Counted from the first letter of the stretch, positions 3,440 to 50,891 are shown. The stretch: 64,000 nt of DNA from Promethearchaeota archaeon (GCA_048939995.1 JBHLOY010000002.1:369402-433401), one strand, 5' to 3'. Notes: a model not told the origin generated them from the letters alone. Numbers and translations: made by a program.

Positions 3440-3499
3440 CTCTACTTGGACGTATAGAAGCTGGAAGATATATAAATAATCGGCCTATGAAATAGAAAT

Positions 3500-22452: not shown

Positions 22453-22475
22453 CCGACTAGTTTATTCTCCAAAAC

Positions 22476-23570: not shown

Positions 23571-23604
23571 AATTATAATTAAAATAATTAATTAAACATT
23601 TTAT

Positions 23605-26098: not shown

Positions 26099-26443
26099 AT
26101 GATTTTAATTATGATTTCACCTAATAAGCATTCTGAAAGAGAAAGGTTTACTGTCCAGACAATGATAAAAATGTATTGTAAAAAATTTCATGATCATAAT
26201 AGTGAATTTTGTGTTGAATGTTCTGAACTTCTTGAATATGCTGAAGAAAGGTTAAAGTATTGTCAATTTGGTAAAGATAAACCAACTTGTAGGAAATGTC
26301 CTATTCATTGTTATAAACCCCTCATGAGAGAAAAGATACAAAAAGTCATGCGATATTCTGGTCCTCGCATGATATATTCACATCCATTAATGGGAATTCG
26401 CTATCTTTTTAAAAAATTTAAGCATATTGAAGAACTAGATTAG
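26099..26443 (+). CDS. Nitrous oxide-stimulated promoter (YgbA_NO) family Cys-rich protein
   Basis: Shows the pattern MYCKKFH..FCVECSELLEYAEERLKYCQFGKDKPTCRKCPIHCYKP typical of that family. Confidence 0.7.
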   Translation: MILIMISPNKHSERERFTVQTMIKMYCKKFHDHNSEFCVECSELLEYAEERLKYCQFGKDKPTCRKCPIHCYKPLMREKIQKVMRYSGPRMIYSHPLMGIRYLFKKFKHIEELD

Positions 26444-28427: not shown

Positions 28428-29024
28428 TTGGAGAAGAGTACAAAAATGATCGAATCTGAACCAGAAATTATTAAAGTTTTCACAGAAGATTTAGCTGATT
28501 CCTTAAAGAATGCAGGATATCCCCAGATTGATGCATGTATTCAATGTGGAACTTGTTCTGGAGGATGTCCATCAGGAAGAAGGACAGCACTAAAAGTTAG
28601 GACAATCATAAGAAAAGTCCAATTAGGAATTGAAGAAATTCTTAACACCAATGATATTTGGTATTGTTCAACTTGTTATACTTGCCTTGAAAGATGTCCC
28701 CGTAAATTACCTATAACAGATATGCTTATTTATTTGAGAAATCTGGCAGTTCAGAAAGGTTTCATACTTGAGAGTCATCTTGATTTATGTAAGAAACTTT
28801 ATAATTCAGGTCATGGAGTTCCTATAGACGATGATAAATGGAAAAAGTTAAGAAAAGCTTACGGTTTAAAACAAATTCCACCAACTGTCCACTCTAATCA
28901 AAAAGATCTAGAAGAAATCCAAATACTTCTCCATAGTGCTAAATTTGATGAATTAGTAAATCTCAAGTCTGAAAAAGATGAGGAGAACGAAGAAGAAAGA
29001 TATTATATTACTAATACCATGTAA
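28428..29024 (+). CDS. hdrC: Heterodisulfide reductase subunit C
   Basis: Two 4Fe-4S motifs (CIQCGTCSGGCP and CSTCYTCLERCP), directly upstream of hdrB. The true start may be the ATG at 28446. Confidence 0.85.
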   Translation: MEKSTKMIESEPEIIKVFTEDLADSLKNAGYPQIDACIQCGTCSGGCPSGRRTALKVRTIIRKVQLGIEEILNTNDIWYCSTCYTCLERCPRKLPITDMLIYLRNLAVQKGFILESHLDLCKKLYNSGHGVPIDDDKWKKLRKAYGLKQIPPTVHSNQKDLEEIQILLHSAKFDELVNLKSEKDEENEEERYYITNTM

Positions 29025-29038
29025 AAGGTCATATAAGG

Positions 29039-29995
29039 ATGGGGGTAAATCGAAAATATTCACTTTTCCTTGGATGTGTTATTCCAAATCGATATCCCTT
29101 TATTGAATTAGCGACTCGTAAAGTATTTCAAAAATTGGGTATCGAATTTGTTGAAATGGATGGGGCATCTTGTTGTCCAGCTCCGGGGGTATTTCGTGGA
29201 TTTGATATAGATACTTGGTTAATTGTTGGAGCTAGAAATTTAACTATTGCTGAACAAAACAAACTTGACCTCGCTACGATGTGTAATGGTTGCTACGGAA
29301 GTCTACTTGAGGTGAATCACCAATTAAAAACTAATAAACAAAAATTAGAGATGGTTAACGAACATCTTGCTAAAATTAATCGAGAATATCACGGAAGTGT
29401 AAATGTAAAACATATCATCGAAATTCTTTATAAGGATATAGGAATTGAAAAATTAAAGAATAGAGTTAAATATGGTCGTAAGAAAGCATTAGACTTAAAC
29501 GTGGCAGTCCATTATGGTTGTCATATTCAAAAACCAGCTAGTATTCGACCATGGGGTAATGAAACAGAAAAACCGCGATTTTTAGACGAATTAGTAGAAA
29601 TTACAGGTTGTAGAAGTATAGATTATAGAGATAAAAATATGTGTTGTGGTGCAGCTGGAGCTGTCAGAAGTGCCTTTAAAGAAGTTTCATTAGATTTTAC
29701 TAGGGAGAAGTTAGAAAACATGAGGGCAGCTGGAGCAGAAGTTATCGTTACTGCTTGCCCTTTTTGTCATCTCCAATTCGATTTAGGTCAAATTGAAATT
29801 AATAATATATTTAAAGAAAAGATCGAAGCTCCTTTTAATATTCCTGTTATTTACTATACACAATTATTAGGTCTCGCGTTAGGTTTAAACCCTGAAGATG
29901 TTGGATTAGTAAGGGATATAGAATTGAAAGGAGTACCTCCATTCACATCGATTAAACCATTTTTAGAAAGAGTGAGTGATGAAGTTGAAGGATGA
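29039..29995 (+). CDS. hdrB: Heterodisulfide reductase subunit B
   Basis: Two CCG domains (ASCCPAPG, MCCGAAG, CPFCH). Confidence 0.9.
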   Translation: MGVNRKYSLFLGCVIPNRYPFIELATRKVFQKLGIEFVEMDGASCCPAPGVFRGFDIDTWLIVGARNLTIAEQNKLDLATMCNGCYGSLLEVNHQLKTNKQKLEMVNEHLAKINREYHGSVNVKHIIEILYKDIGIEKLKNRVKYGRKKALDLNVAVHYGCHIQKPASIRPWGNETEKPRFLDELVEITGCRSIDYRDKNMCCGAAGAVRSAFKEVSLDFTREKLENMRAAGAEVIVTACPFCHLQFDLGQIEINNIFKEKIEAPFNIPVIYYTQLLGLALGLNPEDVGLVRDIELKGVPPFTSIKPFLERVSDEVEG

Positions 29996-31958
29996 GCAGA
30001 AAGTAGGTGTGTTTATTTGTCACTGTGGTAATAATATCGCAGGTGTAATAGATGTAGAGAAACTGACCGATTATGCCAAAACTTTACCTAATGTAAATGT
30101 AGCGGAAAATTATAAATTTATGTGTTCAGAAATCGGTCAAGGATTAATTCAAGAAAAAATTGAAAATGGTGAAATTGATCGCGTAATAGTAGCGGCTTGT
30201 TCACCCCGAATGCATGAATCAACTTTTAAAAAAGTTTGTGAAGATGCTGGCTTAAATCAATATTTATGCGAGATAGCAAATATTCGTGAGCAATGTAGTT
30301 GGGTAAATATGAATGATCCTAAAGGAGCTTATGAAATTGCTAAAGCACATGTTAGGATGGGTGTAGCTAAAGTTAATCAACTAAAAGCTTTGGAGAAATT
30401 TTATGTTGATGTTGAACCTGCATGCTTAGTTGTAGGCGGAGGGATAGCAGGTATGAATGCTTCGTTAGATCTTGCCAATTTTGGTTATAAAGTTTATTTA
30501 GTTGAAAAAACTCCTACAATAGGTGGCCATATGGCACAACTAGATAAAACATTTCCAACGTTAGATTGTTCATCATGTGTTATTACACCTAAGATGTCTG
30601 AAGTAGCCAAAGCTAAAAATATTGAATTATTAACCTATTCTGAAGTTTCTGAAATTTCGGGGTACATAGGTAATTTTAATGTTAAAATAAAAAAATATCC
30701 TCACTATATTGACCAAGAAAAATGTACTGGGTGTGGAAGTTGTGCGGAGTCATGCATTGCCATAAGTCCAAATGAATTCGATATTGGTATGAAAAAAAGA
30801 AAGGCTGCATATATCCCTTTTCCTCAGGCAGTTCCAGGAAAATATACAATTGATATGGAGCATTGCATAAAATGTGGAATATGCGCTGAAATATGTCCTG
30901 TTGGAGCAGTTAATTATGATGATAAAGTAGAATATGAAGAAGTAAAAGTAGGAGCAATAGTATTAGCAACTGGCTTTGACACATATGATCCAACAATATT
31001 AACTCAATATGGATATGGGAGTTATCCAAATGTTATTACTGGACTCCAAATGGAAAGATTATTAAGTTCTTTTGGTCCGACTGGTGGCAAAATCGAAAGA
31101 CCATCAGATTTAAAAGAACCATCAACAATTGTTTTCCTACAATGTGTAGGTAGCAGAGATTTTACTGAAAAAGGAAATAAATACTGCTCTAGAGTGTGTT
31201 GCATGTATTCAGTAAAACAAGCTCGTCTTTATAAAGAGAAGCATCCAGATTCCAAAGTTTATATTTTTTATATTGACATCCGTGCATTTGGAAAAGGTTA
31301 TGAAGAATTCTATGATTCCACTGCAAGAGATTTTCATATAAAGTATATAAGAGGAAGAATTTCTGAAGTACTTGAAGATAAAGATCATAATATTATTATT
31401 CGTGGAGAAGATACTCTCCTTCAAAGGTTAATTGAAATTAAAGCAGATTTACTAGTTTTAGCCGTGGGACTAGAACCGCGCGTAGATTCAAATGAAGTTG
31501 CACACTTATTTAATGTTCAGAAATCAGAGGATGGATTTTTAATGGAAGCACATCCAAAATTACGTCCAGTAGAAACCCTTACAGATGGGATATTCATTGC
31601 TGGAACAGCTCAAGGTCCTAAAGATATTCCTGACACTGTTGCACAAGCTAAAGCTGCTGCTGTAGAAGCAGCTTTATTAATTAATAAAGGAAAAGTTGAG
31701 ATTGATCCGATTTTTTCAATTGTATTAAGCCATAAATGCACTGGTTGCAAAAGTTGTTTGAGTTTATGTCCTTATAATGCAATTTCATTTGATGAATTTA
31801 AAAGAATTGCTGAAATTAATAAGGTTTTGTGCAAGGGATGTGGTACTTGTGTTGCTGCTTGCCCAAGTTCTGCGATTATACAAAATCAATTTGGAGATGT
31901 ACAATTATTACCAATGATCCATACCGCTATTCAAAAACCAGATGAGGTGGAGGGTTGA
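29976..31958 (+). CDS. hdrA: Heterodisulfide reductase subunit A (Cys form)
   Basis: 660 aa with VGVFICHCGNNI, an FAD-binding GGGIAGM motif, and ferredoxin motifs CTGCGSCAESC, CIKCGICAEICP, CTGCKSCLSLCP and CKGCGTCVAACP. There is no in-frame stop. Confidence 0.95.
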   Translation: MMKLKDEQKVGVFICHCGNNIAGVIDVEKLTDYAKTLPNVNVAENYKFMCSEIGQGLIQEKIENGEIDRVIVAACSPRMHESTFKKVCEDAGLNQYLCEIANIREQCSWVNMNDPKGAYEIAKAHVRMGVAKVNQLKALEKFYVDVEPACLVVGGGIAGMNASLDLANFGYKVYLVEKTPTIGGHMAQLDKTFPTLDCSSCVITPKMSEVAKAKNIELLTYSEVSEISGYIGNFNVKIKKYPHYIDQEKCTGCGSCAESCIAISPNEFDIGMKKRKAAYIPFPQAVPGKYTIDMEHCIKCGICAEICPVGAVNYDDKVEYEEVKVGAIVLATGFDTYDPTILTQYGYGSYPNVITGLQMERLLSSFGPTGGKIERPSDLKEPSTIVFLQCVGSRDFTEKGNKYCSRVCCMYSVKQARLYKEKHPDSKVYIFYIDIRAFGKGYEEFYDSTARDFHIKYIRGRISEVLEDKDHNIIIRGEDTLLQRLIEIKADLLVLAVGLEPRVDSNEVAHLFNVQKSEDGFLMEAHPKLRPVETLTDGIFIAGTAQGPKDIPDTVAQAKAAAVEAALLINKGKVEIDPIFSIVLSHKCTGCKSCLSLCPYNAISFDEFKRIAEINKVLCKGCGTCVAACPSSAIIQNQFGDVQLLPMIHTAIQKPDEVEG

Positions 31959-32389
31959 TTATCATGACAGAAGTTTCCTCTTTTGATCCATCAATTTTAG
32001 GTATTTTTTGTCATTGGTGTTCATATGCAGGAGCAGATCAAGCAGGAACATCACGAATGCAGAGATATGCTAGTCTAAGAATTTTACGTGTGATGTGCGG
32101 AGGAAGGATTGACCCTAATTTTGTGGTTACTGCCTTAAAAGATGGAGTAGATGGCGTTTTAATTTCACATTGTCATCTCGGAGATTGTCATTACGTTACA
32201 GGAAATCATAAAACTGCAAGAAAAATACCATTACTTACGAAATATTTAAAACAATTGGGAATTAACCCAAAGAGAATTAAGTATGTCTTTGTTTCTGCAT
32301 CTGAGGGAAGTAAACTTACGAATATTGTTAATGAATTTGTAGAAGAATTAAAAGAATTAGGTCCTAATCCATTAAAAAAATCGGATTAA
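31955..32389 (+). CDS. mvhD: MvhD-type hydrogenase delta subunit (FlpD/MvhD family)
   Basis: Contains FCHWCSYAGADQAG, RVMCGGRIDP and CHLGDCHY. The ATG at 31964 is the more likely start. Confidence 0.9.
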   Translation: MIIMTEVSSFDPSILGIFCHWCSYAGADQAGTSRMQRYASLRILRVMCGGRIDPNFVVTALKDGVDGVLISHCHLGDCHYVTGNHKTARKIPLLTKYLKQLGINPKRIKYVFVSASEGSKLTNIVNEFVEELKELGPNPLKKSD

Positions 32390-32425
32390 CTTTATAAAGA
32401 AATAATATGTTAGGTTGAGCGAAAA

Positions 32426-33100
32426 TTGTATCCAAGAGTTAAAGAAATTCAGACAAATAAATTCAATGAATCAATTTTAAATTTTTATACTGAAAATTAT
32501 ACGATTAAGATTGATAAGGAGAGATGCATTGGATGTGGAATTTGTATTAAAGTCTGTCCTAATAATGCTATTCCTGCTCAAGATCTAGAAGGAAAAGTAC
32601 GAATTAAGACTGAGAATCTTGTGCCAGGCACACCGAATGCGCTTAAATGTTCATATTGTGGGACTTGCATGTATATGTGTCCTTTAACAGCAATATCTTT
32701 AAAACATAATAGAAAATTGATAAATAAAGAAGATCTGGGGATCGTAAAAAATAAGGTGGTTCCAGAATTAGATTTTAAATCGATTAACTCTGATAAATTT
32801 CAGAAAGAGATTAAAGTATACTTTGATGGTAAAATATCTATTGATTGGGATAAATGCATTTCATGCATGTCATGTGTGGATGTCTGTCCAGTTGAAGCTT
32901 TTTTTAAATCTAACACTCAGGATGGCAAAGATGAAAAAAGAAAAAGAGTTTCATTTAATCAAGATGCATGCATAAATTGTGGTACCTGTGTTAGAGCTTG
33001 TTCAGTCAAAGCTATAAGTTTAAAAGATCGTGCATTAAACTTTTCTGGGGATTTTAAAAAGATATTTTGGGAAGCTTTATTAACACGTATCAAAACTTGA
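32426..33100 (+). CDS. Polyferredoxin with four 4Fe-4S motifs
   Basis: Motifs are CIGCGICIKVCP, CSYCGTCMYMCP, CISCMSCVDVCP and CINCGTCVRAC. Confidence 0.8.
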   Translation: MYPRVKEIQTNKFNESILNFYTENYTIKIDKERCIGCGICIKVCPNNAIPAQDLEGKVRIKTENLVPGTPNALKCSYCGTCMYMCPLTAISLKHNRKLINKEDLGIVKNKVVPELDFKSINSDKFQKEIKVYFDGKISIDWDKCISCMSCVDVCPVEAFFKSNTQDGKDEKRKRVSFNQDACINCGTCVRACSVKAISLKDRALNFSGDFKKIFWEALLTRIKT

Positions 33101-36388: not shown

Positions 36389-37753
36389 TTAATAGAATTC
36401 ACAATCATTAAGAAGTTGTGAAATATCCATAACTTTTATCGGTGAGTTGTCCTCGTTTGCGACTTCAAATAAATTATTTTTACAAAAAACGCATGAACTA
36501 ACAAGAACTTCAGCATTTGTTTCCATTGCTTCTTTTAAACGATCTTCCCTTATTCTTATCATACAAGCGCGAGTTTCTGCTAACCTGTCTCTTCCTATTT
36601 CACCTGCTATCTCACCATATAAAGCTTTTACTCCACCTCCAGCTCCACAACACCAGGACATATCTCTGTTATGTTTCATCTCAAATAATTTTACACCTTC
36701 AATCATATTTAGAAGTTCTCTTGGTTCTTCATAAACTCCACAATATCTACCCAGATGACATGGATCGTGATATGTTATAAGTAGAGGATCTTCTTTTGTG
36801 CGCTGTGTATATCGGATTTTTAAATTCCTTTCTTTGACAGTCTTTAATACGAATTGTGTTAAATGATAAAGATCAAATTCAAGCTTATGTCCCGCATACT
36901 TAGTATATTCCAGAGTAAATGTGGAGAAACATCCTGAACAAGAAAATACTAATTCAGATACACCACTTTCCAAAATTGTTTTGTAATTATGTTTTACAAG
37001 CTCAATAGCTTCATCTTCCAACCCAGTTCGGAATAATACTGATCCACAACACCGTTCCTCGGGAAATAATACAAATTCAATTCCAAGTTTTGCTAAAACC
37101 TTGCTTGTTGCAGTTACTAACTCTTTATTTCTATAGGAAGAAGTACATCCAACAAAATACCCTACTTTACCAGGTATACGTTTAGGAACTTTTAATTCAA
37201 CTTCCGCTTTTATTGAATCTAAATCCTGTTTTGCTCGTTGATATGCCTCTCTTCCTTCTTCAACAGCCTCACACCAATTAAATCTGTCCAAATGTTTTTC
37301 TAAAAATGGATTGTTATTCTCAATAATAGAATTTTTTAACACTTTTAATTTTGCAGGGACAGCTCCTTTTTTTACTACTTCTTTACGGAAGTTTTGGAAC
37401 ACTTCTAAAGTATCTATTCCGACGGGGCAAACAACTTTACAGTTACCACAAAGCATACAACGAAATACAGATGGGATTATCTCTTCATTATCGAATTTAA
37501 TATCATGACTATCAAGTGCTTTAATAATCCTATTTCGCCCACCAGCATAATCAGTTTCTGACCATGAAGTGTTATAAACCTTACAAACATGTCTACAGTA
37601 TCCACAATGCGTACAGCGCTCATAGGAGTACTTTTCCTTTCTTTTACTTTTAGGTTCTATTAAATTTTCTTTTGAGGGGGATACTAAACCTGCAACTGGG
37701 GGTCCTGTGGTAACTACATTTCTTATATCTTTCTTTTCTTTGCCTTCACTCAT
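36389..37753 (-). CDS. Fe-S oxidoreductase, GlcF/HdrD-like (2x 4Fe-4S plus two CCG domains)
   Basis: Contains CTHCGYCRHVC, CMLCGNCKVVCP, VGCTSSY..CCGS and HDPCHLGR..WCCGAGGG. Confidence 0.85.
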   Translation of the reverse strand: MSEGKEKKDIRNVVTTGPPVAGLVSPSKENLIEPKSKRKEKYSYERCTHCGYCRHVCKVYNTSWSETDYAGGRNRIIKALDSHDIKFDNEEIIPSVFRCMLCGNCKVVCPVGIDTLEVFQNFRKEVVKKGAVPAKLKVLKNSIIENNNPFLEKHLDRFNWCEAVEEGREAYQRAKQDLDSIKAEVELKVPKRIPGKVGYFVGCTSSYRNKELVTATSKVLAKLGIEFVLFPEERCCGSVLFRTGLEDEAIELVKHNYKTILESGVSELVFSCSGCFSTFTLEYTKYAGHKLEFDLYHLTQFVLKTVKERNLKIRYTQRTKEDPLLITYHDPCHLGRYCGVYEEPRELLNMIEGVKLFEMKHNRDMSWCCGAGGGVKALYGEIAGEIGRDRLAETRACMIRIREDRLKEAMETNAEVLVSSCVFCKNNLFEVANEDNSPIKVMDISQLLNDCEFY

Positions 37754-37888
37754 TTAACTCTTTCTCCTTGTTTTAAACTATACCAAATTAAACATATAAA
37801 CATTTTAAATTAAATTTAATTGTTATATTTTATTTGATTTGATTTTTTATGAACAACATTTTTACTAACTGCTTTTCAAACATTTCTT

Positions 37889-39388
37889 CTAAAAAATTCT
37901 ATATAAGAATTTAGCAGTATTAAATAATAATGATATTCTCCAGAATTTTAATCTAGTTTTAACTATCCGATATGAATTAAACAAATCTTTTGGATCTAAT
38001 AACTTTTTTAATATTTTACTCTTGGATACTAATTCAGGTCTATATTTAAACAAATAAAAAGTATTCACTATACCTATGGTATAAAGCCTATCCCCCTGAG
38101 TAAATGCTAGAACAGAAAGATCATGTAAGAATGCCTTTACTGTAAAGAATTCACTAGTTCTAGCAATATCAGATAAACCAAATACTTTTACTCTACTCCA
38201 ACCTAAAATTCCCGAAATTGTATATAAGGCAGTTGGAAATTTATATTTCTTACTTTTCTTTAAATATTTTTGAATAAAATCTTCTAATCTTTTGTCAGCA
38301 ATCCAATATTCTTGAAATATTAGATTTCTACTTGATCTTCCTATAGCCACTTCAGCATCACTAATATCACGCCACTTTTCCTTTAAATATAATTTATCTA
38401 CTGCTATTCCATTTAATTCTAAAGCATGTTTCTCAGAAAATGATACACTTTGTGATGTTACCTCAGGATCATCATAATAAACTGCCCAAACTAACCATTC
38501 TTGGTCAGGAAAATTGATATGGGAATAGGTTTCAAATTTGCGTTCTGAAATTGATATGAAAAATGGCTTATTAGTATTATTTTTGAGTTTTTGATAAAAT
38601 TCGATAGCTTCACGAATAGATTTAAAGCCATAACCAATTATTTCCAAGGAAGTTTTTAAGGTTGTAAGAGATAATTCAACCTCGGCTATAGCACCGTAGA
38701 TCCCATAAGTTCCACAAATATCATCGAGTGTTATTTGTCCTTTAGAATCCTTCGAAACAGTGATGATTTTTCCATCAGGTTGGACTAGTTTTAAATTAAG
38801 AATTGAATCTTTCATTGATCCGTATTTTAACACACCAATACCGGCAGTACCGGGGGTAGCTATAAACCCTCCAACACAAGATGTTTTAAAGCTTGTAGGA
38901 TAACATTTAGGTGCAAGACCGTAATCTGAAAGTTTTTCTATCAAATTTAACCAAGAGATACCAGCCCCTACTTTTACTGTCATATTTTCTCTATCTATAC
39001 TTTGGATCTGATTTAATCTCCTTGTGTCTATTATAACACCACCTTTCGAGGGAGTAGCTGAAGAAAAGCATGATGTCCCAGCCGCTCTTATTGTAACAGG
39101 AATTTTTCGCTCTCTACATTTCATTATTAGTTTAGAAAGATTATTAATATCAGCAGGACGGACAATTAGACTCGCAAGGTAATTCTTTTTGAATTTATAA
39201 TGGTATGATGGAAGTGAAGTAAGATCAGCAGATGCTGATTCGAGTTCATAAGGATTGGAACTAACATGATAAGACGATATAAAGTCTTTTACAACCTCTT
39301 CAAAATCACGTTTATCTTTTTCTCGTGAATCTATTATATTGGATTCATTATTCATTTCTTTAGTATTAGAATTCATTTTAAATATCAC
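37889..39388 (-). CDS. FAD-binding (PCMH/FAD_binding_4) oxidase, GlcD/D-lactate dehydrogenase-like
   Basis: FAD-binding segment IPVTIRAAGTS..GGVIIDTRRLN..VKVGAGISW. The start lies 9 nt after the stop of 39398..40264. Confidence 0.8.
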   Translation of the reverse strand: MIFKMNSNTKEMNNESNIIDSREKDKRDFEEVVKDFISSYHVSSNPYELESASADLTSLPSYHYKFKKNYLASLIVRPADINNLSKLIMKCRERKIPVTIRAAGTSCFSSATPSKGGVIIDTRRLNQIQSIDRENMTVKVGAGISWLNLIEKLSDYGLAPKCYPTSFKTSCVGGFIATPGTAGIGVLKYGSMKDSILNLKLVQPDGKIITVSKDSKGQITLDDICGTYGIYGAIAEVELSLTTLKTSLEIIGYGFKSIREAIEFYQKLKNNTNKPFFISISERKFETYSHINFPDQEWLVWAVYYDDPEVTSQSVSFSEKHALELNGIAVDKLYLKEKWRDISDAEVAIGRSSRNLIFQEYWIADKRLEDFIQKYLKKSKKYKFPTALYTISGILGWSRVKVFGLSDIARTSEFFTVKAFLHDLSVLAFTQGDRLYTIGIVNTFYLFKYRPELVSKSKILKKLLDPKDLFNSYRIVKTRLKFWRISLLFNTAKFLYRIF

Positions 39389-39397
39389 TTCTTTTTT

Positions 39398-40264
39398 TTA
39401 AAATAATGGAACCATTAAAAAGCCTGAAAAGAAAGCAGCCCACCAGCAAATTAAAGTAATGTAACCAGTTAATTTAGCATACTTTCGCTCTGCTGCAATT
39501 CCAAAAAGCATACTGAAAAGTCCAGCAATTAATCCAACTCCCCCTAATATTATATGAGACCAATGGATTCCAAAGGAGAATGACGTCCAGATTGCAGGAT
39601 TAAAAATTACTAGGGAAATAACATTAATCAGGGTTAAAACCCATGAAGCACCGGCTAGAATACCGTGGATTTTCACAAATTTATTTTCATTTATCAGTAC
39701 CAGTACTGTTCCTAAAGATAATAATAATAAGGCTGATAATCCGATATACATTTCAAAATGATTAAATATTTCAATTGTCGGAGCTGGTGGGAGTATTCCA
39801 CCAATGCTAAAAGTGATCTCTATATAGTCGAAAGGAGGTGGGCTACCAGAAACTGAATTATCTCCAGCTAAGATAAGGATCACATAAGCTCCATCCTCTG
39901 AAGGAGCTGTAATATTGAAAGTGACTGTCATTGCATTTGGATTTGGATTTAAATCATCGCCAGAGTTATCTAATATTCTAGCGCTAGTAGGTGAGATAAT
40001 AAATTGATCATTCTGTTTTCCGTCTGAAGGTGCTTGAATAAACAAATCAGAACCAGTAGCAGTAATATTAAAAGAAATGTTATCTGAAGCGTTGATAGGA
40101 TTAAATGTGTTTATATTAGTTTCAATTGAATAACCTCCCGGTACTGTATGGCAATTTTCATGAGGTTGATCGATACTAGGGTAAGCATTTACATTAAGAA
40201 AAATTGAGATTAGGATAACACCAAAAAAGGCAGATATTATTACTATTGCTTTTTTATTCAACAT
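39398..40264 (-). CDS. Exported H-x-x-C-H motif protein fused to a C-terminal 4-TM His-bearing membrane domain
   Basis: Signal peptide, then AYPSIDQPHENCH, a beta-rich ~140-aa domain (FNITAPSEDGAYVL), and 4 TM helices with His at KIHG and GIHWSH. Confidence 0.7.
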   Translation of the reverse strand: MLNKKAIVIISAFFGVILISIFLNVNAYPSIDQPHENCHTVPGGYSIETNINTFNPINASDNISFNITATGSDLFIQAPSDGKQNDQFIISPTSARILDNSGDDLNPNPNAMTVTFNITAPSEDGAYVILILAGDNSVSGSPPPFDYIEITFSIGGILPPAPTIEIFNHFEMYIGLSALLLLSLGTVLVLINENKFVKIHGILAGASWVLTLINVISLVIFNPAIWTSFSFGIHWSHIILGGVGLIAGLFSMLFGIAAERKYAKLTGYITLICWWAAFFSGFLMVPLF

Positions 40265-40428: not shown

Positions 40429-42132
40429 ATGATATTTAATAAGAATTCCTTGAGAACTGTTATTATTTATGATTTTGTAATTATTTTAGCTGTTGTTGTC
40501 ATTATCCCAAATCTATTGAACTTTTTTGATCTAAATCTAAAAATTCAAGTACTATCTTACCTCGCCAACATTCTAATTTTATTAAATATTATCATAGTAG
40601 TTATAGATTTAATCTTCTTGATGTGGAAGAGAGAAAATTATTTGTATCTAACATCATTCAATATGACTCTATCAGTTTCAATTTTTTTGCTGTTAGAGTA
40701 CTGTTTTGTGAATGGTTATTACGATTTTTTTTATGTATGGAGTTATAGTGAATTGACTTTACCACTTGTTTATAAGATTGTTGCTATATGGGCAGGAGAG
40801 GCTGGTTCAATAATGACTTGGATGGTATTTAACTCAGTAATTATTTTTGCCTATAGAATTAAAAACCAAGATAAAGAGGATACAGTTTTTCTATTATCAT
40901 GTATAGTTTCCATGATAATTTCTATTTTGTTTTTAATAATTTTATTCTCACTTAACCCTTTTAAAGTAGAGCAGCCAGTTTTGTATCCCAATGGTTTTGG
41001 ACTCAGCCCTCAATTGATGTCCCCTTTTATGATTTGGCATCCTTTTTTTACATTTTTAGCATATGCCATCTTTCTAATTCCATTCACTATTAATATTATA
41101 AATCTTATAAAACCAAAATTGTCTTTAAGAAATCCTTATCAGCAAGCATTTTATAATTTTTCATTAAAATTTGGATGGTTAGTTATTACCCTAAGTATAG
41201 GTTTAGGAGCTTATTGGGCAAAAATTACTTCCGCTTGGGGCAGATATTGGGGCTGGGACCCAGTAGAGGTTGTATCTCTTATTCCCTGGTTTTTTTGTAC
41301 TGCTTTTTTTCATTCCAGTATATTTAAAGTGAAAAATCCTAGGATTATTAAAATAAATTCCATCTTAATCTTTTTTTCAATAATATTTGCCACCTTAATA
41401 ACTAGGGGAGGAGTATTGAGTTCGCTTCACGCATTTACAGGAGGAGGAGAATTGGTTATATGGGTTTTAATTATTGGTTTTATTTTATTAGCTTTTGCGA
41501 TATATGTAATTTACGAAATTTTAAATTACTTCTTGGAAGACTATCATAAAATTAAGAGCTTTTTTGATTATTTAAGCTATCTGATTTTATTTTGCTTATC
41601 TTTTGTTTGCATTTTTGGACTGATAATTCCTCCTCTAACTAATTTCATATCAAATTTTATCGCAATTGATTCAATAATCATTGGTCCAAACTTCTTTATG
41701 ATTAGCGCATTCATATTAGCTATAATATTGGCAATTTCGCTCATTTTTTGTTCCTTGTGGGATATCTATAACAAAAGGTGGATCATAATCACTTTATTCA
41801 TTGTATTTTTGATACAGTTGATTATTTCATTATTTTTATTTTTTCTATTTGATCTTTGGATAAATCCATTTATTGCCATCTTTTATTATGCTCTTTTTGC
41901 TTCAACCTTTCGATTAATAAAGAGAACGAATCTTCAAATGGGGTTCCAAAAGTTCTTTAGAACAAATTCAAAAACGATTATACATGGAGGAATATCACTT
42001 ATTTTGATAGGGACTTTAATTGATGCCAGTTACGAAGTAATTTTAGATATTTTTTACATTTCTGGATTTGGTTTTTTACTAATTGGGATAATACCCTCTA
42101 TTTTTATGGTTTTTTTTATTAAAGCACATTGA
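40429..42132 (+). CDS. ccmF: Cytochrome c-type biogenesis protein CcmF (haem lyase/haem-handling protein)
   Basis: W-rich motif WGRYWGWDPVEVVSLIPWF, flanking His residues (MIWHPF, AFFHSS) and RGGVLSSLHAF. Confidence 0.85.
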   Translation: MIFNKNSLRTVIIYDFVIILAVVVIIPNLLNFFDLNLKIQVLSYLANILILLNIIIVVIDLIFLMWKRENYLYLTSFNMTLSVSIFLLLEYCFVNGYYDFFYVWSYSELTLPLVYKIVAIWAGEAGSIMTWMVFNSVIIFAYRIKNQDKEDTVFLLSCIVSMIISILFLIILFSLNPFKVEQPVLYPNGFGLSPQLMSPFMIWHPFFTFLAYAIFLIPFTINIINLIKPKLSLRNPYQQAFYNFSLKFGWLVITLSIGLGAYWAKITSAWGRYWGWDPVEVVSLIPWFFCTAFFHSSIFKVKNPRIIKINSILIFFSIIFATLITRGGVLSSLHAFTGGGELVIWVLIIGFILLAFAIYVIYEILNYFLEDYHKIKSFFDYLSYLILFCLSFVCIFGLIIPPLTNFISNFIAIDSIIIGPNFFMISAFILAIILAISLIFCSLWDIYNKRWIIITLFIVFLIQLIISLFLFFLFDLWINPFIAIFYYALFASTFRLIKRTNLQMGFQKFFRTNSKTIIHGGISLILIGTLIDASYEVILDIFYISGFGFLLIGIIPSIFMVFFIKAH

Positions 42133-42371: not shown

Positions 42372-44768
42372 ATGAAAAACAAAAAACGCAAGCTATTATC
42401 CCTTATTATTGTTATCTGCTCTTTACTTCTATTTACTGGATTTACAATTGCTTATACAAGTTACTTTGATGATTTTAATGGAACATCTCACGGCACTTCT
42501 TGCCACTTTAGCTCTTCAACTCAAAGTAGTACGGGATATTTATCAATAGTATCAAGTTCAGGAAATACCGTAAATCCCGGTGAGAATTTTATACTATCTG
42601 TTCAAGTAAAAAGTTTCAGCGAAGCAGATGGAAAAGAACTTAAATTTGGTTTTCCTAGTGGCACTCCAGGCAGAGGAGATAATAAGCAATTTGGTTTTAA
42701 TACCACAATGGTCTCTGCAGATATAACTTCTGGAGATTCAGCGATATTTGATTTTCTAGTTAATGCACCTCTGACAGAGCAATCATATACTTTAACTGCT
42801 GATGCAATATACCGAAAGAGTGGTAGTGAGACTATATGGGCGTCTACTAATTATATAGTAACAGTCCAAACTTCCTCAGACATTTTACCCCCAGAGCTCA
42901 TCATTATCGATCCGAAAGATAATGAATACAAAAATGGCAATATATTGATTAATGCAAGTGTTATTGACAATGGAGGTTCAGGTCTTAATACAGTATGGGC
43001 AGAAATTACTAATAATAACTCTTTTAATCAAACTGTTTCAATGAATTTAAACACTGATCCATATTATAACGCTATTTGGGATTCAACTTCTGCGCTTGAT
43101 GGTCCTTATACTATAAATGTGAAAGCTAATGATGGAGCCTTTAATATTAATGATACAGAATCTGTAAATGTGATCATTGACAACACCGCGCCCTCAATTG
43201 TTTTAAATAGTGTGCTCCCAAATCCTTCAAATGGATTAACATCTATAAGAGCAATGAATTTTAGTTCAGATATCAATAATTATGGGATTAGGGCAACTAT
43301 AACAACTCCCACTGCTAACAAAATTTTCCTTGATCTAATATATCAAGGAGGAAATGAATGGAACAATACATTTACTATAACCCAAAATGGAATATATTCT
43401 GTTCAGATAAATGCAAGTGACTATTTAGGAAATATTAATATTTCATCCTCATTAAGCATTAATGGAGACATTTTAAATCCTTTTGTTGATATTACAAGTC
43501 CTGGAAATGATGGAGATACCATCGGGGGAGATACTATTATTATAAGCGGATGGGCATATGGTACAGGTACTAACATTGTAAGTTTATTTATAAACGATTC
43601 AAGATGGGGAATTACTCAGAATAAACCCCAGATTGACCCCAGCGGCACTTCTAGTGGACCATTCAGTTTTGAAAATAATAGTTATATATCTCCAGGATTT
43701 TATTGGGTTGAAGTTAACATTACAGACGCTGCTGGAAATATAAATATAAGTAAAAGATATTTCGAAGTCGTTTCGAACGATATTTTTCCACCTATCCTTG
43801 TTTTTAGCTTAATAAATCCAAATCCATCAAATGGTTTTACTAATATTACTGTTATATCAAATGAACCATTAATAGGAAATCCATTGTTAAGTATAACCAC
43901 TCCAAATAGTACTACTATTTATAGAACACTTTATCCTACGGGGGTTCCGAGAACATGGATAACCAATTATACAATTCATGAAACAGGAACTCACTTTATA
44001 CAAGTAAATGGAACAGATCTTCATTCAAATGTGGGTTTTAAAACGGATTCATTTTATGGAGATATTGATGCACCTTGGATTACCCTTGATAATGTTTATC
44101 CAAATCCATCCAATGGCTTAACGTTAATAACTGCTTTTAATGCAAGCTCGGATATTGATATAAATGGATTATGGGCCACAATAACAACACCTAGTAAATC
44201 AATTTCCATTCAACTTAATTATCAAGAGAACAGTAAGTGGAATGCAACCTTCATAGTAACTGAAGATGGAACTTATTCCATCCAAGTAAATGCGACTGAT
44301 TTTGCTGGAAACACAAACATTACAGACTTAATTTATATTACTGGTGATATTAGTACTCCAATTTTATCAATAATTTCACTTCCAATTGAGAGTGGGGTTA
44401 ATGCTCCAAACTTTTCTATCTCCATAACAGAGCCAAATTTAGATGGCATATGGTATTCACTATATAATGGCATTTACTGGTCTCAAAATATCACTATTAT
44501 TGGATTTAATGGGACTTTAGAGCAATCTTTATGGGATACCATGCCTACAGGGGATATCTTAATTAGGTTTTATGCAAATGATACGTTAGGACACATAGGA
44601 TATATAGATATTACTATTAGTAAAAATATACCCCAGACGAATATCAATCCTGGGGAAGGAACAGTATCAGGATTCGATTTAGGTATAATAATCGCAACGA
44701 CTTCAGCGATTCCACTTATATTTATAATTCTATGGCTAAAATCAAGGACAAAAAGATTTATTCGATAA
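42372..44768 (+). CDS. Large surface protein: signal peptide, H-x3-C-H motif domain, multiple Ig-like repeats, C-terminal TM anchor
   Basis: Starts AYTSYFDDFNGTSHGTSCH. The N-domain is homologous to 47724..48377 (RGDNxQFG, FDFL.NAP..Y.L). Three ~95-aa repeats contain PNPSNG(L/F)T. The anchor is SGFDLGIIIATTSAIPLIFIILWLKSRTKR. Confidence 0.8.
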   Translation: MKNKKRKLLSLIIVICSLLLFTGFTIAYTSYFDDFNGTSHGTSCHFSSSTQSSTGYLSIVSSSGNTVNPGENFILSVQVKSFSEADGKELKFGFPSGTPGRGDNKQFGFNTTMVSADITSGDSAIFDFLVNAPLTEQSYTLTADAIYRKSGSETIWASTNYIVTVQTSSDILPPELIIIDPKDNEYKNGNILINASVIDNGGSGLNTVWAEITNNNSFNQTVSMNLNTDPYYNAIWDSTSALDGPYTINVKANDGAFNINDTESVNVIIDNTAPSIVLNSVLPNPSNGLTSIRAMNFSSDINNYGIRATITTPTANKIFLDLIYQGGNEWNNTFTITQNGIYSVQINASDYLGNINISSSLSINGDILNPFVDITSPGNDGDTIGGDTIIISGWAYGTGTNIVSLFINDSRWGITQNKPQIDPSGTSSGPFSFENNSYISPGFYWVEVNITDAAGNINISKRYFEVVSNDIFPPILVFSLINPNPSNGFTNITVISNEPLIGNPLLSITTPNSTTIYRTLYPTGVPRTWITNYTIHETGTHFIQVNGTDLHSNVGFKTDSFYGDIDAPWITLDNVYPNPSNGLTLITAFNASSDIDINGLWATITTPSKSISIQLNYQENSKWNATFIVTEDGTYSIQVNATDFAGNTNITDLIYITGDISTPILSIISLPIESGVNAPNFSISITEPNLDGIWYSLYNGIYWSQNITIIGFNGTLEQSLWDTMPTGDILIRFYANDTLGHIGYIDITISKNIPQTNINPGEGTVSGFDLGIIIATTSAIPLIFIILWLKSRTKRFIR

Positions 44769-44857: not shown

Positions 44858-45580
44858 TTGAAGAATTTGGCTATTAAAAATAAAGAAATCATCAATTGTA
44901 AAAATGTTTCAAAGCAATTTGGATATTTCTTTGCATTAAAAGATATTTCATTCAAAGTAATAGCAAATACTATCTTTGGGATTGCAGGAGCAAATGGAGC
45001 AGGTAAAACAACACTGATTAAGATTTTATCTGGATTAATGAATCCTTCTTCTGGAAAAGTATACATTCAAGGTAATAATTATACTGAAAATCCGTTTTTG
45101 ATTAAGGAAATGATAGGAATTAATACTGAGGAATCTTTTCTTTATGAGGAGTTGACTATTAATGAAAATCTAGAGTTTTATGATAATCTTCATTACAACT
45201 TCAATAAAAGTCAGATAAGAAATAAAGTAGAAAACTATGCAGAATTATTTGAAATTCACGATTGGTTAGATGAACCCATTCGGAATTTATCTCATGGAAT
45301 GAAACAAAAAGTTGAAATAATTAGAGTTTTAATGCATGAGCCTTCAATATTGTTCTTAGATGAACCCTTTTCAGGTTTAGACTTTAAAGCAACTAAATTA
45401 TTAATAAATTTACTTCAGAATTTAAAAAAAGGAAAAAATGTAACAATAATACTAACTACTCATAAAATTGATGTATTATCAAAAATCTATGATGATTTAA
45501 TCATTTTAAAAAAGGGAAAAATCAACAAATTCATTACAAAAGAAACTTATGAAGAATTTGAAATAGAATCATATTTTTGA
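44858..45580 (+). CDS. ccmA: ABC transporter ATPase, CcmA-like by context
   Basis: Walker A GANGAGKTT, signature LSHGMKQK and Walker B ILFLDEP. TTG start. It is immediately followed by a CcmB-like gene. Confidence 0.75.
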   Translation: MKNLAIKNKEIINCKNVSKQFGYFFALKDISFKVIANTIFGIAGANGAGKTTLIKILSGLMNPSSGKVYIQGNNYTENPFLIKEMIGINTEESFLYEELTINENLEFYDNLHYNFNKSQIRNKVENYAELFEIHDWLDEPIRNLSHGMKQKVEIIRVLMHEPSILFLDEPFSGLDFKATKLLINLLQNLKKGKNVTIILTTHKIDVLSKIYDDLIILKKGKINKFITKETYEEFEIESYF

Positions 45581-45589: not shown

Positions 45590-46306
45590 ATGGAGATAAA
45601 ATTTAAAGATAGAATTAAGTTATTCTTTTCTATATTAAGAAAAGATTTAAAATCTGAAATCCGTCAAATAAACGATATATTTTCAATATTTCTTTTTGAT
45701 GTTATATCTATTTTTATATTTTCATCAGTATATAGCTTCAGTACACAATATCAACAGATCCCGCTTGAAATATTTATAATTGAGGTCTGGTTAATAATTT
45801 TTTTTACTCTTATTTTTATAATGGCTAAATTATTCATTAAAGAAAAAGAATCTGGAACCTTAGGAGGATTAATTTCTTCGCCAATTTCAGCCAACACAAT
45901 AATATTTAGTAAGGTAATTTTTTGTTTTATTCTATTGAGCTTTATCGAAATCATTCTTTTTCTCTTTAGTTTCTTTATTTCTAATCCTTTAATACCCAAT
46001 TTACAATTTAATAATGTGATAAATTATATACTCTTAGGGATTATTTTACCAACATTAGATTTATCAATCTGTGGGACAATAGTATCAGCAATTTCTATGT
46101 ATGCTAAGAAAAAATCTTTTATTATACCACTTATCCTATTTCCGATAATATTGCCAATAACAATCCCAATAATATCGATTAATATTAAATTGTTAGAATT
46201 AGCTGCGTTTCTTGAATTAACTTATGAAATTTTATTTTTAGTTTCACATATTATTCTTATGACTTCAATATTAGCTTTAGTTTCTCAAAATCTTCTTTTT
46301 GATTGA
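45590..46306 (+). CDS. ccmB: Haem exporter membrane protein CcmB-like
   Basis: 6-TM protein with KEKESGTLGGLISSPIS, matching the CcmB E-x-x-GTLE-x-L-x-x-SP segment. Start is 10 nt after ccmA. Confidence 0.65.
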   Translation: MEIKFKDRIKLFFSILRKDLKSEIRQINDIFSIFLFDVISIFIFSSVYSFSTQYQQIPLEIFIIEVWLIIFFTLIFIMAKLFIKEKESGTLGGLISSPISANTIIFSKVIFCFILLSFIEIILFLFSFFISNPLIPNLQFNNVINYILLGIILPTLDLSICGTIVSAISMYAKKKSFIIPLILFPIILPITIPIISINIKLLELAAFLELTYEILFLVSHIILMTSILALVSQNLLFD

Positions 46307-46309: not shown

Positions 46310-46648
46310 TTAGCTACACTGAATGAGAATTTGGCTTGCTTTTAAAATCAACGTAATGTTGAATTGACCTGCAACCACTATTTCAATTCCATTTTTTAGT
46401 TCGCTTGGTACAGTAATTTGAGAAACATCGATTAAAATTGTATCATCATTCTCTGTCAAATTAAAGTTGCCCCCTGAAAAGCCTTCTACAATCCCAATTA
46501 CTTGAATTTCAAGATTATCATATTCTGTAGGATTGGAAACAACCTGAGAAACCCTAAGATATGGTCGTATATTAATAACTACTAATATAATAATAAGAAC
46601 TAATGAAAAAATAATTGCTATTATTGCTATAATCTTCGCTTTTTTCAA
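46310..46648 (-). CDS. ccmE: CcmE-like haem chaperone, Cys variant with truncated C-terminus
   Basis: An N-terminal TM anchor plus an OB-fold-like pattern (YLRVSQVV, IQVIGIV, FNLTEND, IEIVVAGQF). The C-terminus ..LKASQILIQCS aligns with ..EVLAKHDExY. Confidence 0.65.
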   Translation of the reverse strand: MKKAKIIAIIAIIFSLVLIIILVVINIRPYLRVSQVVSNPTEYDNLEIQVIGIVEGFSGGNFNLTENDDTILIDVSQITVPSELKNGIEIVVAGQFNITLILKASQILIQCS

Positions 46649-46810: not shown

Positions 46811-47611
46811 TTAATCATCTCGTAACTTATTTTGAATAATTTCATTTAATTTTTGTTTATTTTTATCTAGTTCAACTAAATTTCTTACCACATAAACGAA
46901 AAAGAGAGTCATCGCTATCAAGTTAAGAAATAATATAAGAAGTTTCATAAAATCCCAATAAATATAACCTGATTCACTTGGATTTGGAGTTATTAATGGA
47001 TGTAAACTTGTAAAAATGATTGCAGAAAGATAACTTAAAGGCACTGTTGGAAAAAAAATAATTCCTAAAATTGAAGTTAATTTAGCTCTCCTTTCTCTAT
47101 CTTCAATCATAGTCCCAAAAATTAAATAAGATAAATATGAGAGAAACAAGACTAAAGTCATAGTTTGTCGCGGGTCACTCCACTGCCAATAAACATTATT
47201 ATAAAGTCCCGAAGTAGCATTATACCAGAGTGATCCTGTGATAAGTGTTACTGCACAAAAAAATACACCTACGACAATACTATTCTTTCCTATACTATTC
47301 CAGAATAGTTTTCTTTGTATGAGGTATAATATATGACAAATAAGACTTACTCCAAATGAAAAGTAGGAAAGCCAAGCTGATGAAACATGATAAAAAAAAA
47401 TCATATACACAATGCGGCTAAAATTTGTCAATAAAAAAATCAAAAATAAGTTAATGATGAGGAATGAAATTGAAATGATAAGTAAATAATCTTTTTTTAC
47501 CCAACTTCTGATGTCTTTCATCTTAATTCTCAAATAAATATAAAATTTTGTATTGAGTGAGTTATAATTAATATTATTGCTGTTAATACTTTCAATATTA
47601 AAAAAGATCAA
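46811..47611 (-). CDS. ccmC: Cytochrome c biogenesis haem-handling protein CcmC
   Basis: W-rich motif NVYWQWSDPRQT and conserved His residues (FFYHVSSAW, SLHPL). The true start is probably Met31 (ATG at 47521..47519). Confidence 0.8.
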   Translation of the reverse strand: MIFFNIESINSNNINYNSLNTKFYIYLRIKMKDIRSWVKKDYLLIISISFLIINLFLIFLLTNFSRIVYMIFFYHVSSAWLSYFSFGVSLICHILYLIQRKLFWNSIGKNSIVVGVFFCAVTLITGSLWYNATSGLYNNVYWQWSDPRQTMTLVLFLSYLSYLIFGTMIEDRERRAKLTSILGIIFFPTVPLSYLSAIIFTSLHPLITPNPSESGYIYWDFMKLLILFLNLIAMTLFFVYVVRNLVELDKNKQKLNEIIQNKLRDD

Positions 47612-47723: not shown

Positions 47724-48377
47724 CTATTTAGAAGCTTTACGTTTCTTTCGATATACTAATACGACTATAAGTGAGGCAGTTGTAATGGCAAGTACTCCAA
47801 CCAAAGTATAAATTTCAAATCCAGGAATAGCTCCACCGCTAACAGTCAAAACTACATTGCCTGAAGCATAAATAATACTCAGAGCAGAGCCATCAGTGTG
47901 ATTTGCGGCAGTTAAAACGTCAACAACTAGGTTATAAGTACCATCTGTAGATGGAGCTAGTAAATCAAAAGAAACTGAAACATTAGCATCTCCATTAACA
48001 TCTAAAGTAATTCCTCCTAATCTTATTGGTTCACTTAATTTTTTGCCAAATTGAGCATTATCACCACGAGTAGAAGCGACTGCCACACTCACTTGACTAT
48101 CTCTATCTATAGTTAATGCTTCAGTAAAATTTGTAATTACTACATTTACAGTAAACTCTTGGCCTGCTGTTAGTGATGTACCCTGAATGGAGACAACGGT
48201 TACTGCAGCGCCAGCGCTTTCTGTAGTAGGACCATCCCCAACATGACATCCAGCATGTGAACCACCAAGAAAGCTTTCAATGGAAGATGGGTAGGCAACC
48301 GCACCACCAACTAAAACTAGAAGAAAAGCAAATACGGCAATAAGAGGGATTATTTTTCTTTTCATTTGATTAGCCAC
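47724..48377 (-). CDS. Surface-anchored H-x-x-C-H motif protein with PGF-CTERM-like anchor
   Basis: Signal peptide, then AYPSSIESFLGGSHAGCH, a ~150-aa beta-rich domain (RGDNAQFG, FDLLAPSTDGTYNL), and the C-terminus IPGFEIYTLVGVLAITTASLIVVLVYRKKRK. Confidence 0.75.
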   Translation of the reverse strand: MANQMKRKIIPLIAVFAFLLVLVGGAVAYPSSIESFLGGSHAGCHVGDGPTTESAGAAVTVVSIQGTSLTAGQEFTVNVVITNFTEALTIDRDSQVSVAVASTRGDNAQFGKKLSEPIRLGGITLDVNGDANVSVSFDLLAPSTDGTYNLVVDVLTAANHTDGSALSIIYASGNVVLTVSGGAIPGFEIYTLVGVLAITTASLIVVLVYRKKRKASK

Positions 48378-50888: not shown

Positions 50889-50891
50889 AAT

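Follow-up and report, generated by a model that had tools for sequence, protein, structure and literature searches.

A candidate cytochrome c/b-like membrane subunit of an FAD/Fe-S dehydrogenase pair in Asgard archaea

In the Tmc, Hmc, DsrMKJOP and HdrDE systems of sulfate reducers and methanogens, electron transfer follows a three-layer logic, with a c-cytochrome outside, a His-bearing haem module in the membrane and a cytoplasmic CCG Fe-S protein. TmcB, HmcF, DsrK and the HdrB/D-type proteins are the partners of membrane cytochromes b in these systems (Tmc, Hmc, Dsr and Hdr), and in HdrDE, DsrMK, Tmc and Hmc it is a cytoplasmic CCG protein that receives the electrons. In another set of enzymes, GlcDEF, Dld-II, LldEFG/LutABC and YdiJ, a flavoprotein of the FAD_binding_4 family (FAD, flavin adenine dinucleotide) stands beside a protein with two [4Fe-4S] motifs and two CCG domains. 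Here we describe a locus that shares features with both sets. It lies in a stretch of 64,000 nucleotides (nt) from Promethearchaeota archaeon (GCA_048939995.1, JBHLOY010000002.1:369402-433401), hereafter the window, which has a G+C content of about 31%. The gene under study encodes a 288-amino-acid (aa) protein, hereafter the target, and is followed on the minus strand by genes for an FAD_binding_4 flavoprotein and an Fe-S/CCG protein (Table 1). In our assessment, the target is, with moderate probability, a cytochrome c/b-like membrane subunit of a three-part dehydrogenase, passing electrons to surface cytochromes. A preliminary description had proposed a membrane electron outlet that links a cytoplasmic dehydrogenase to extracytoplasmic proteins with a common motif. 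This proposal is supported by the conservation of its His residues and of the gene linkage, and by the lack of a match to any non-redox family.

The open reading frames (ORFs) of the trio were recovered at the positions and in the order first reported. The target and flavoprotein genes are almost contiguous: the gap is 9 nt, as previously stated, if the flavoprotein starts with GTG at 39388, and 21 nt if it starts with ATG at 39376. The spacer between the flavoprotein and Fe-S genes is 135 nt long (37754..37888). The target gene is divergent from ccmF, again as described, with an intergenic region of 164 nt between them.

The target starts with MLNKK and a hydrophobic segment, followed by ...NVNA/YPSIDQP-H35-E-N-C38-H39. 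Its hydropathy profile contains five hydrophobic segments (residues 7-25, 173-191, 199-217, 238-256 and 269-287), while by the same measure neither the flavoprotein nor the Fe-S protein has a transmembrane (TM) segment or a signal peptide. Lys and Arg residues are clustered at the N-terminus and in the loops 192-199 and 257-264, the loop 222-232 is uncharged, and the 142-aa ectodomain is acidic (2 K/R vs 16 D/E). Because this K/R distribution follows the positive-inside rule, it fits a topology with the N-terminus inside and residues 27-168 outside, which places H169, H234 and H237 near the outer surface of the membrane and H200 near the inner one. The exported HENCH domain and the C-terminal four-TM domain of the preliminary description are both recognizable here, as a signal segment (7-25), an extracytoplasmic motif and four later TM segments. 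In an AlphaFold2 model of the full protein built with 39 homologues (predicted local distance difference test score, pLDDT, 83), an N-terminal helix precedes a beta-sandwich at residues 46-154 and four long helices at 170-191, 193-221, 233-256 and 260-284. The most conserved stretches among the 39 homologues are the two cytoplasmic loops, NENKFVKxHG and GIAAERKxAK.

The target has no match in Pfam (E<=10) or NCBIfam. A search of 5.8 billion clustered proteins returned 170 homologues, all from Asgard metagenome-assembled genomes (labelled Promethearchaeota, Loki-, Hod-, Hermod- or Thorarchaeota) or from unlabelled metagenomes, and those with names are all called 'hypothetical'. A profile search of 1.84 billion representatives gave only 107 matches, and the membrane family so defined has no annotation. 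The UniRef name of one relative, P0079, 'Cytochrome oxidase subunit I profile domain-containing protein', comes from automatic profile labelling and was rejected as evidence of membership. Foldseek with the full model gave generic immunoglobulin-like (Ig-like) and macroglobulin-domain matches only, which were not used as evidence.

The first line of evidence is the linkage of the target to the dehydrogenase genes. In 26 of 26 syntenic Asgard loci, with target identity down to 45%, the target is followed on the same strand by the FAD_binding_4 gene, mostly after 6-42 nt, and then by the Fer4/CCG gene. The same arrangement recurs outside this synteny. Every distant relative examined, in contexts unrelated to that of the window, has the family gene directly upstream of a GlcD-like gene, and these relatives include forms with CX5CH, CX4CH and CxxCH motifs as well as forms consisting of the TM domain only (Table 1). 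The conserved neighbourhood anticipated in the preliminary description is thus found both within and beyond the syntenic loci. Because the linkage recurs outside the synteny, TM-only forms included, the four-TM domain is very probably the membrane subunit of this FAD/CCG enzyme family. The c-haem ectodomain, present in many family members but not in all, is an addition. In one locus (L038), a 489-aa polytopic membrane protein with several His-rich helices (SHLHIQ, GHWH) and no Pfam match is encoded at 176..1645, immediately ahead of the genes for a TM-only member and its flavoprotein.

The second line of evidence comes from the histidines of the TM domain. The preliminary description had pointed to His residues at helix boundaries (KIHG, GIHWSH), and these are present in the target as KIH200G and GIH234WSH237. 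No variation is seen among the 39 close homologues at H169, H200, H237, E193, R260, W274 and W275, and hardly any at H234. Among 25 TM domains from all subfamilies, including the TM-only forms, H200 and H237 are invariant, H234 is present in 24, and H169, which had not been noted before, is likewise invariant (25/25), as are T211, N214, G267 and W274. In an AlphaFold2 model of the TM domain alone (pLDDT 89.9; predicted template modelling score, pTM, 0.83), H169 on helix 1 and H237 on helix 3 are each six residues in from the outer end, and H200 on helix 2 is seven residues in from the inner end, at the same height as the invariant G267 on helix 4. In up-down bundles, haem b with two His ligands is usually held between helices i and i+2, and helices 1 and 3, which carry H169 and H237, are in this relation. 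From these residues and their predicted positions, the odds lean towards a TM domain that binds haem and conducts electrons.

The TM-only members raise another explanation, namely that electrons go to a membrane quinone. The four-TM domain would then be a quinone-reactive anchor, comparable to SdhCD or to those of GlpABC and Dld, with the fused c-haem domain as an accessory or a second way out. These members lack the c-haem domain, keep all the His residues and the FAD/CCG partners, and need another acceptor. The invariant T211 and N214, at mid-membrane depth, also speak for it. On the other hand, every fused form is encoded in a ccm cluster together with other surface cytochromes, searches with Pfam, PDB and Foldseek revealed nothing similar to known quinone-binding anchors, and no quinone-biosynthesis gene was noticed in the window or the loci, where no systematic search for such genes was made. 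We regard a quinone anchor as decidedly unlikely.

The third line of evidence concerns the HENCH motif. Since homologues have CxxCH in the same alignment column and a ccm cluster is adjacent, this motif is likely a degenerate c-type haem site, with an ectodomain that binds haem c. C38 and H39 do not vary among the 39 close homologues, and H35 varies hardly at all. Across the family the CH dipeptide forms a single alignment column, at which CxxCH, CxCH, CX4-5CH, H-x2-4-CH or xxxCH is found. The canonical CxxCH, with a Cys three residues upstream, is present in P0122 and P0226 (CNSCH), P0126 (CGECH), P0140, P0168, P0173, P0188 and P0193, and some homologues have neither Cys nor His at the upstream position. 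The target itself has only the second Cys and the His of this motif. Four distant fused members (P0154, P0158, P0165 and P0169) have no Cys-His dipeptide and keep the His (HH, GH, AH, CSFH), which suggests non-covalent haem or loss of the cofactor in these proteins. The motif of the target is extracytoplasmic in the predicted topology, and the maturation genes ccmF, ccmA, ccmB, ccmE and ccmC are all within 8 kb. Among 151 ORFs with a hydrophobic N-terminus in the 26 related loci, 58 carry H-x(2-4)-C-H in their N-terminal 80 residues and none has CxxCH. Such exported H-x(2-4)-CH proteins are the only visible substrates of the adjacent Ccm system. The conserved His in place of the first Cys could possibly occupy a haem vinyl group by a His-vinyl link, which is known from CcmE and from cyanobacterial GlbN.

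One could also read H-x-x-C-H as binding Cu, Zn or another metal in a domain of Ig-like or cupredoxin-like type. A His-Cys-His triad is plausible as a metal ligand set, the domain is a beta-sandwich, and the automatic UniRef name mentioned above cites a cytochrome oxidase profile. That name refers to subunit I, however, a TM profile, and not to a copper centre, and the spacing of the motif varies as in Cx2-4CH haem motifs. Moreover, the ccm cluster, ccmF included, adjoins the target in 25 of the 26 loci, the haem-synthesis genes adjoin it in L035, and no CxxCH substrate of Ccm is otherwise present in the loci. A copper site was ruled out by the homologues with CxxCH or without the first His. 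Overall, a metal site is extremely improbable.

The Ccm system itself shows a variation. In the window and in 21 of 21 loci, CcmE ends with Q-I/L-L-T/I/V-Q-C-S-stop, so that only one residue follows the haem-binding Cys, and the Tyr of CxxxY is absent. The CxxxY haem-binding motif has been reported as universal in archaeal CcmE, and the absence of CcmG/H as general in archaea (PMC9084895). A single-Cys site, which needs no disulfide reduction, would fit the absence of CcmG/H. In L035 and L036, from the lineage of the CNSCH orthologue, the ccm/target cluster is beside genes for glutamyl-tRNA reductase, porphobilinogen deaminase, uroporphyrinogen methylase/synthase and NirDL-like proteins. In these two loci a type I signal peptidase gene is also present between ccmA and ccmF.

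Two other exported proteins encoded in the window, of 798 and 217 aa, could receive the electrons. Their motifs, SHGTSCH and SHAGCH respectively, are at the same distance from the signal peptide as the motif of the target, and the profile of the target ectodomain weakly matches the N-terminal domains of both families from the motif onward. In the 26 loci, homologues of both proteins have one such motif each, which usually contains the sole Cys of the protein; for the 798-aa protein, these homologues are 876-1513 aa long and have one H-x(2-4)-C-H each. As to their general form, the large family reaches 1513 aa with Ig-like repeats, the small 217-aa type is often tandemly duplicated, and both have C-terminal TM anchors resembling Loki/Heimdall-CTERM.

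Taking the complex as a whole, we infer haem occupancy, the pairing of the His residues, the docking of the subunits, an outward flow of electrons and a 2-hydroxyacid substrate. The four-helix bundle would dock the flavoprotein and the Fe-S/CCG protein via the two conserved cytoplasmic loops. It would most likely carry haem b, with an outer haem on H169 of helix 1 and H237 of helix 3, H234 being nearby, and a second cofactor site near the inner face that involves H200 of helix 2. The ectodomain would be a beta-sandwich monohaem c-type cytochrome, in which one thioether bond joins the haem to C38 and H39 is the axial ligand, the attachment being made by the adjacent archaeal Ccm system (CcmABCEF). 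Electrons would then pass from the substrate to FAD, to the 4Fe-4S/CCG clusters, to the membrane haem or haems and to haem c, and from there via the two other single-Cys surface cytochromes to an external acceptor, such as a mineral, a humic substance or a syntrophic partner.

The flavoprotein contains FAD_binding_4 (PF01565, 3.7e-34), and its C-terminal cap domain is not recognised by Pfam. Its PDB matches, which cover the FAD domain only, are glycolate oxidase, LctD, D-LDH, D2HGDH and alkyl-DHAP synthase. A C-terminal tail (37889..37970, minus strand) of the form ...KFWRIxLLF...Y.I is common to all orthologues, and in the window it reads ...KFWRISLLFNTAKFLYRIF. This tail (...RIVKTRLKFWRISLLFNTAKFLYRIF) is basic and hydrophobic and is a candidate amphipathic helix binding the membrane or the anchor. 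Because longer flavoprotein paralogues have true TM helices in its place, the tail is suggested to contact one or the other. The Fe-S protein, 77-94% identical across the loci, contains CCG (PF02754, 1.2e-32, two stretches) and Fer4_8. No GlcE or second FAD_binding_4 gene is present in the operon, the window or the loci. Two Thorarchaeota-like loci, L028 (790..21188) and L034, with G+C contents of 44-46%, contain several paralogous FAD_binding_4 and Fer4/CCG pairs in a row, in which some flavoproteins have C-terminal TM helices of their own and one is fused to Oxidored_q6 (hydrogenase small-subunit-like).

A 2-hydroxyacid is our best guess for the substrate, by analogy with the family architecture, and it would be thermodynamically sensible. 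Oxidation of the lactate type needs an acceptor more positive than NAD+ or ferredoxin. An outward flow from a 2-hydroxyacid has, in our view, somewhat less than an even chance. The same complex could also work in reverse, so that a partner or extracellular donors would feed the surface cytochromes, and the membrane module would pass the electrons to the CCG protein and the flavoprotein for reduction of a cytoplasmic substrate. The direction is not fixed by sequence, and TfrB, TmcB, HmcF, DsrK and HdrB, which are among the sub-threshold matches of the CCG protein, are reductive or bidirectional in their own systems. Against this reversal, a PCMH flavoprotein invariably accompanies the CCG protein, the FAD and Fe-S/CCG enzymes GlcDEF, Dld-II and YdiJ oxidise 2-hydroxyacids, and no thiol- or disulfide-handling partner is encoded at the locus. 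Reverse flow is unlikely.

Several observations weigh against the interpretation of the target as an electron-conducting membrane subunit of a 2-hydroxyacid dehydrogenase. First, the synteny of the 26 loci extends to unrelated genes (leucine-rich repeat (LRR) protein, polyferredoxin, MvhD, Hdr and hydrogenase), and because of this the 26 loci alone are weak evidence and the case rests on the non-syntenic relatives. Second, a sequence-profile search of the PDB with the four-TM domain gave nothing at E<=10, and no relative among known cytochromes b, whether of the NarI/HdrE/DsrM, Ni_hydr_CYTB or b561 type, was detectable in Pfam (E<=10), NCBIfam, PDB or Foldseek. With the TM-only model, Foldseek returned generic four-helix bundles, which do not constitute evidence (best E 0.42, cytochrome c' and bRIL fusions; NarI at rank 36 with probability 0.35). 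The sole hint of kinship with cytochromes b is a match of one distant member to Cytochrom_B561 at E 0.065. Third, the inner face has one conserved His, H200, with no obvious second axial ligand, and M252 and Y268 are not family-wide. Since a single haem at the outer face cannot span to the cytoplasmic Fe-S cluster, the proposed path requires an inner cofactor at H200, and this is its weakest step. A Thorarchaeota subgroup has an additional His at the inner end of helix 3, and other members might use a dimer interface or a residue of a partner as the second inner ligand.

In another explanation, the TM domain is a non-redox membrane tether or assembly factor for the dehydrogenase, in which the His residues serve a structural metal or proton/ion handling and the exported cytochrome domain works independently. 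The lack of homology to any cytochrome b and the single conserved His on the cytoplasmic side both agree with such a role. Three to four invariant His residues at matched helix depths in a four-helix bundle do not, nor does the repeated fusion of the TM domain to a c-type cytochrome domain, and the partner CCG Fe-S protein is of the kind that pairs with membrane cytochromes. No known non-redox family matched the four-TM domain in Pfam, NCBIfam, PDB or Foldseek. Such a tether appears very unlikely.

The enzyme assignment is affected as well. The best NCBIfam match of the flavoprotein, TIGR00387 (GlcD), is nearly full length and scores 111.5 bits, compared with a cut-off of 567.9. The motifs H-x-GDGN-x-H and EHG are characteristic of GlcD/D-LDH enzymes, which are metal-dependent 2-hydroxyacid dehydrogenases. 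Patterns for them (H.GD[GA]N.H and EHG), applied with no positive control, found no match in the Asgard flavoproteins. The Fe-S protein is below the cut-off for TfrB, LdhH, GlpC, GlcF, TmcB, HmcF and DsrK in NCBIfam (95.2 bits vs a cut-off of 333 for NF008434, GlcF), and it has a sub-threshold resemblance also to HdrB/D-type proteins. Of the GlcD/GlcF-like pair in the preliminary description, the FAD_binding_4 and two-[4Fe-4S]/two-CCG domains are retained, whereas a substrate of the lactate/glycolate type is tentative, with scores far below the cut-offs.

Transcription provides further points of this kind. In the spacer before the Fe-S gene, a box, AATAAAATATAAC.ATTA.A..TTTAAT, is strongly conserved among 16 aligned, otherwise variable spacers of 82-135 nt, and it is followed by a ribosome-binding site, AAGGAG or AAGAG. 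By its sequence, this box looks like an internal archaeal promoter. Only 5-19 nt separate one gene of the trio from the next in the distant relatives. A single metatranscriptome contig, 230 nt long and with a depth of 57, corresponds to 40022..40251, within the 5' part of the target gene, which suggests expression of the target in situ; it covers the 5' part only and could derive from DNA. No transcript crossing a gene junction was found in the metatranscriptome search. Co-transcription of all three genes, as formerly proposed, is doubtful in view of the conserved promoter-like box.

Apart from the trio, the window encodes HdrABC/MvhD, [NiFe]-hydrogenase subunits, Hyp maturation proteins, an LRR protein and the ccm cluster (Table 1), and the hydrogenase/Hdr/polyferredoxin synteny with the ccm/target cluster is kept in many of the 26 loci. 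The window also encodes an exported NosD/beta-helix protein of 730 aa (3500..5692, minus strand), which is unrelated to the present finding.

Table 1. Features of the target locus, its neighbours in the window and related loci (positions refer to the window unless a locus is named; BRE, B recognition element)
Feature	Position	Strand	Description
Target gene	39398..40264	-	288 aa; signal peptide/anchor, single-Cys haem-c-like motif, beta-sandwich, four-TM domain with conserved His
H35-E-N-C38-H39 motif	40148..40162	-	putative degenerate c-type haem-binding motif: one thioether Cys and axial His
Ig-like beta-sandwich ectodomain (about aa 40-160)	39785..40147	-	AlphaFold2 strands 46-154
Four-TM domain (aa 163-288; H169, H200, H234, H237)	39401..39778	-	candidate haem-b-binding membrane module
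Flavoprotein gene	37889..39388	-	499 aa; PCMH/VAO-type, distant GlcD relative, no TM segment; PF01565, 3.7e-34
AT-rich promoter-like box (AATAAAATATAACAATTAAATTTAAT)	37811..37836	-	in flavoprotein/Fe-S spacer, about 65 nt before Fe-S start; archaeal BRE/TATA-like
Fe-S/CCG protein gene	36389..37753	-	454 aa; two 4Fe-4S motifs and two CCG domains (GlcF/GlpC/TfrB/HdrD-like); predicted cytoplasmic
ccmF	40429..42132	+	CcmF/NrfE-family haem lyase; PF01578; TIGR00353, 142 bits; WGxxWxWD motif
798-aa exported surface protein	42372..44768	+	SHGTSCH near N-terminus, Ig-like repeats, C-terminal TM anchor; candidate electron acceptor
ccmA (ABC ATPase)	44858..45580	+	Pfam
ccmB	45590..46306	+	Pfam
ccmE	46310..46648	-	Pfam and NCBIfam; protein end ...IQCS
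ccmC	46811..47611	-	Pfam and NCBIfam
217-aa exported protein	47724..48377	-	SHAGCH motif, beta-sandwich, Loki/Heimdall-CTERM-like anchor; candidate electron acceptor
HypF/HypD/HypE-like genes, two Oxidored_q6/[NiFe]-hydrogenase sets, HdrCBA-MvhD, polyferredoxin	20053..24657, 26440..27822, 28428..33100, 49575..52196	-, -, +, +	flank the locus
L035 haem-synthesis flank	1..5606 and 7443..8048 of L035		also radical-SAM/SPASM-like fragment
L026			TM-only, 127 aa, with all four His; followed directly by flavoprotein and Fe-S genes; no ccm nearby
P0172, Thorarchaeota (G+C 46%)			fused, CX5CH; FAD_binding_4 at 5 nt, Fer4/CCG at 12 nt; different context
P0174, Thorarchaeota			fused, CX4CH; then flavoprotein 27% identical to that of the window, E 2e-54
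P0226			CNSCH version; same target/FAD/CCG trio
P0126			fused, CGECH; 4-nt overlap with FAD gene, then CCG
P0178			TM-only, 178 aa; 4-nt overlap with FAD gene; CCG gene beyond a 249-aa gene
P0186			TM-only, 136 aa; between FAD genes; CCG gene downstream
P0164			TM-only with extra helices; flavoprotein 55% identical to that of the window, 6 nt on

Among known organisms, Asgard archaea are those most closely related to eukaryotes, and models of eukaryogenesis by syntrophy hinge on how these archaea dispose of electrons. Lokiarchaeia-like Asgards are usually modelled as fermenters that exchange H2 or formate. If the present interpretation is true, a cytochrome-based electron outlet would be added to H2/formate transfer in Asgards, and the proteins named here would be concrete candidates for testing. 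In its widest form, the proposal is that Lokiarchaeia-like Asgards possess a pathway dedicated to extracellular or direct interspecies electron transfer, in which a cytoplasmic flavin/Fe-S dehydrogenase is connected, via a previously unknown haem-binding four-helix family, to new beta-sandwich cytochromes matured by a variant Ccm system (CcmE ending in Cys-Ser, no CcmH/G). We offer this only tentatively, at well below even odds. Within one domain family, the motif forms a natural series of c-haem sites, from CxxCH, CxCH and Cx4-5CH to HxxCH, xxxCH and Cys-less forms, and an archaeal CcmE without the Tyr of CxxxY bears on substrate recognition by System I. Within the literature searchable here on Asgard or Lokiarchaeia Ccm, c-type cytochromes, extracellular or interspecies electron transfer and HXXCH, the system is not described. 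What appears to be new is the unannotated membrane family, the unusual series of haem-c motifs and the variant CcmE.

One described family with some resemblance is NCBIfam NF041895 (choice-of-anchor V), which has no assigned function. Members of the target family and the 217-aa protein align with it over about 110-135 of 150 positions, with scores all below the 42-bit cut-off (32.2, 25, 21.4 for the 217-aa protein, 19 and 17 bits), and the target has no match. Cytochrome f provides an architectural analogy only: it is also a beta-sandwich c-cytochrome with the haem site near the mature N-terminus and the anchor after the domain, but it has CxxCH and a single TM helix, and there is no sequence or Foldseek match between the two. 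The single-Cys (A/F)xxCH cytochromes c/c1 of Euglenozoa likewise have one Cys and an axial His, and the C-x2-4-CH spacing of the bacterial Cx3CH, Cx4CH and CxnCH variants parallels the H-x2-4-CH found here. Unlike the class I alpha-helical cytochromes c of Euglenozoa, the domain described here is a beta-sandwich, its first motif position is usually His, and its maturation would be the task of archaeal System I (CcmABCEF) rather than of the euglenozoan machinery.

By the tests run on these sequences, the locus belongs to none of the Tmc, Hmc, DsrMK, HdrDE or GlcD/GlcF families. It differs from the GlcDEF-type enzymes by the lack of GlcE, by scores far below the family cut-offs and by a dedicated cytochrome-type membrane subunit, as predicted. 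Compared with Tmc, Hmc, Dsr and HdrDE, its membrane module has four TM helices and, with no Pfam match, no sequence kinship with the NarI, HdrE or DsrM cytochromes b. Where those systems have a c-cytochrome outside, here the c-domain is fused to the membrane module and is predicted to be monohaem with a single Cys, and a PCMH flavoprotein is present on the cytoplasmic side.

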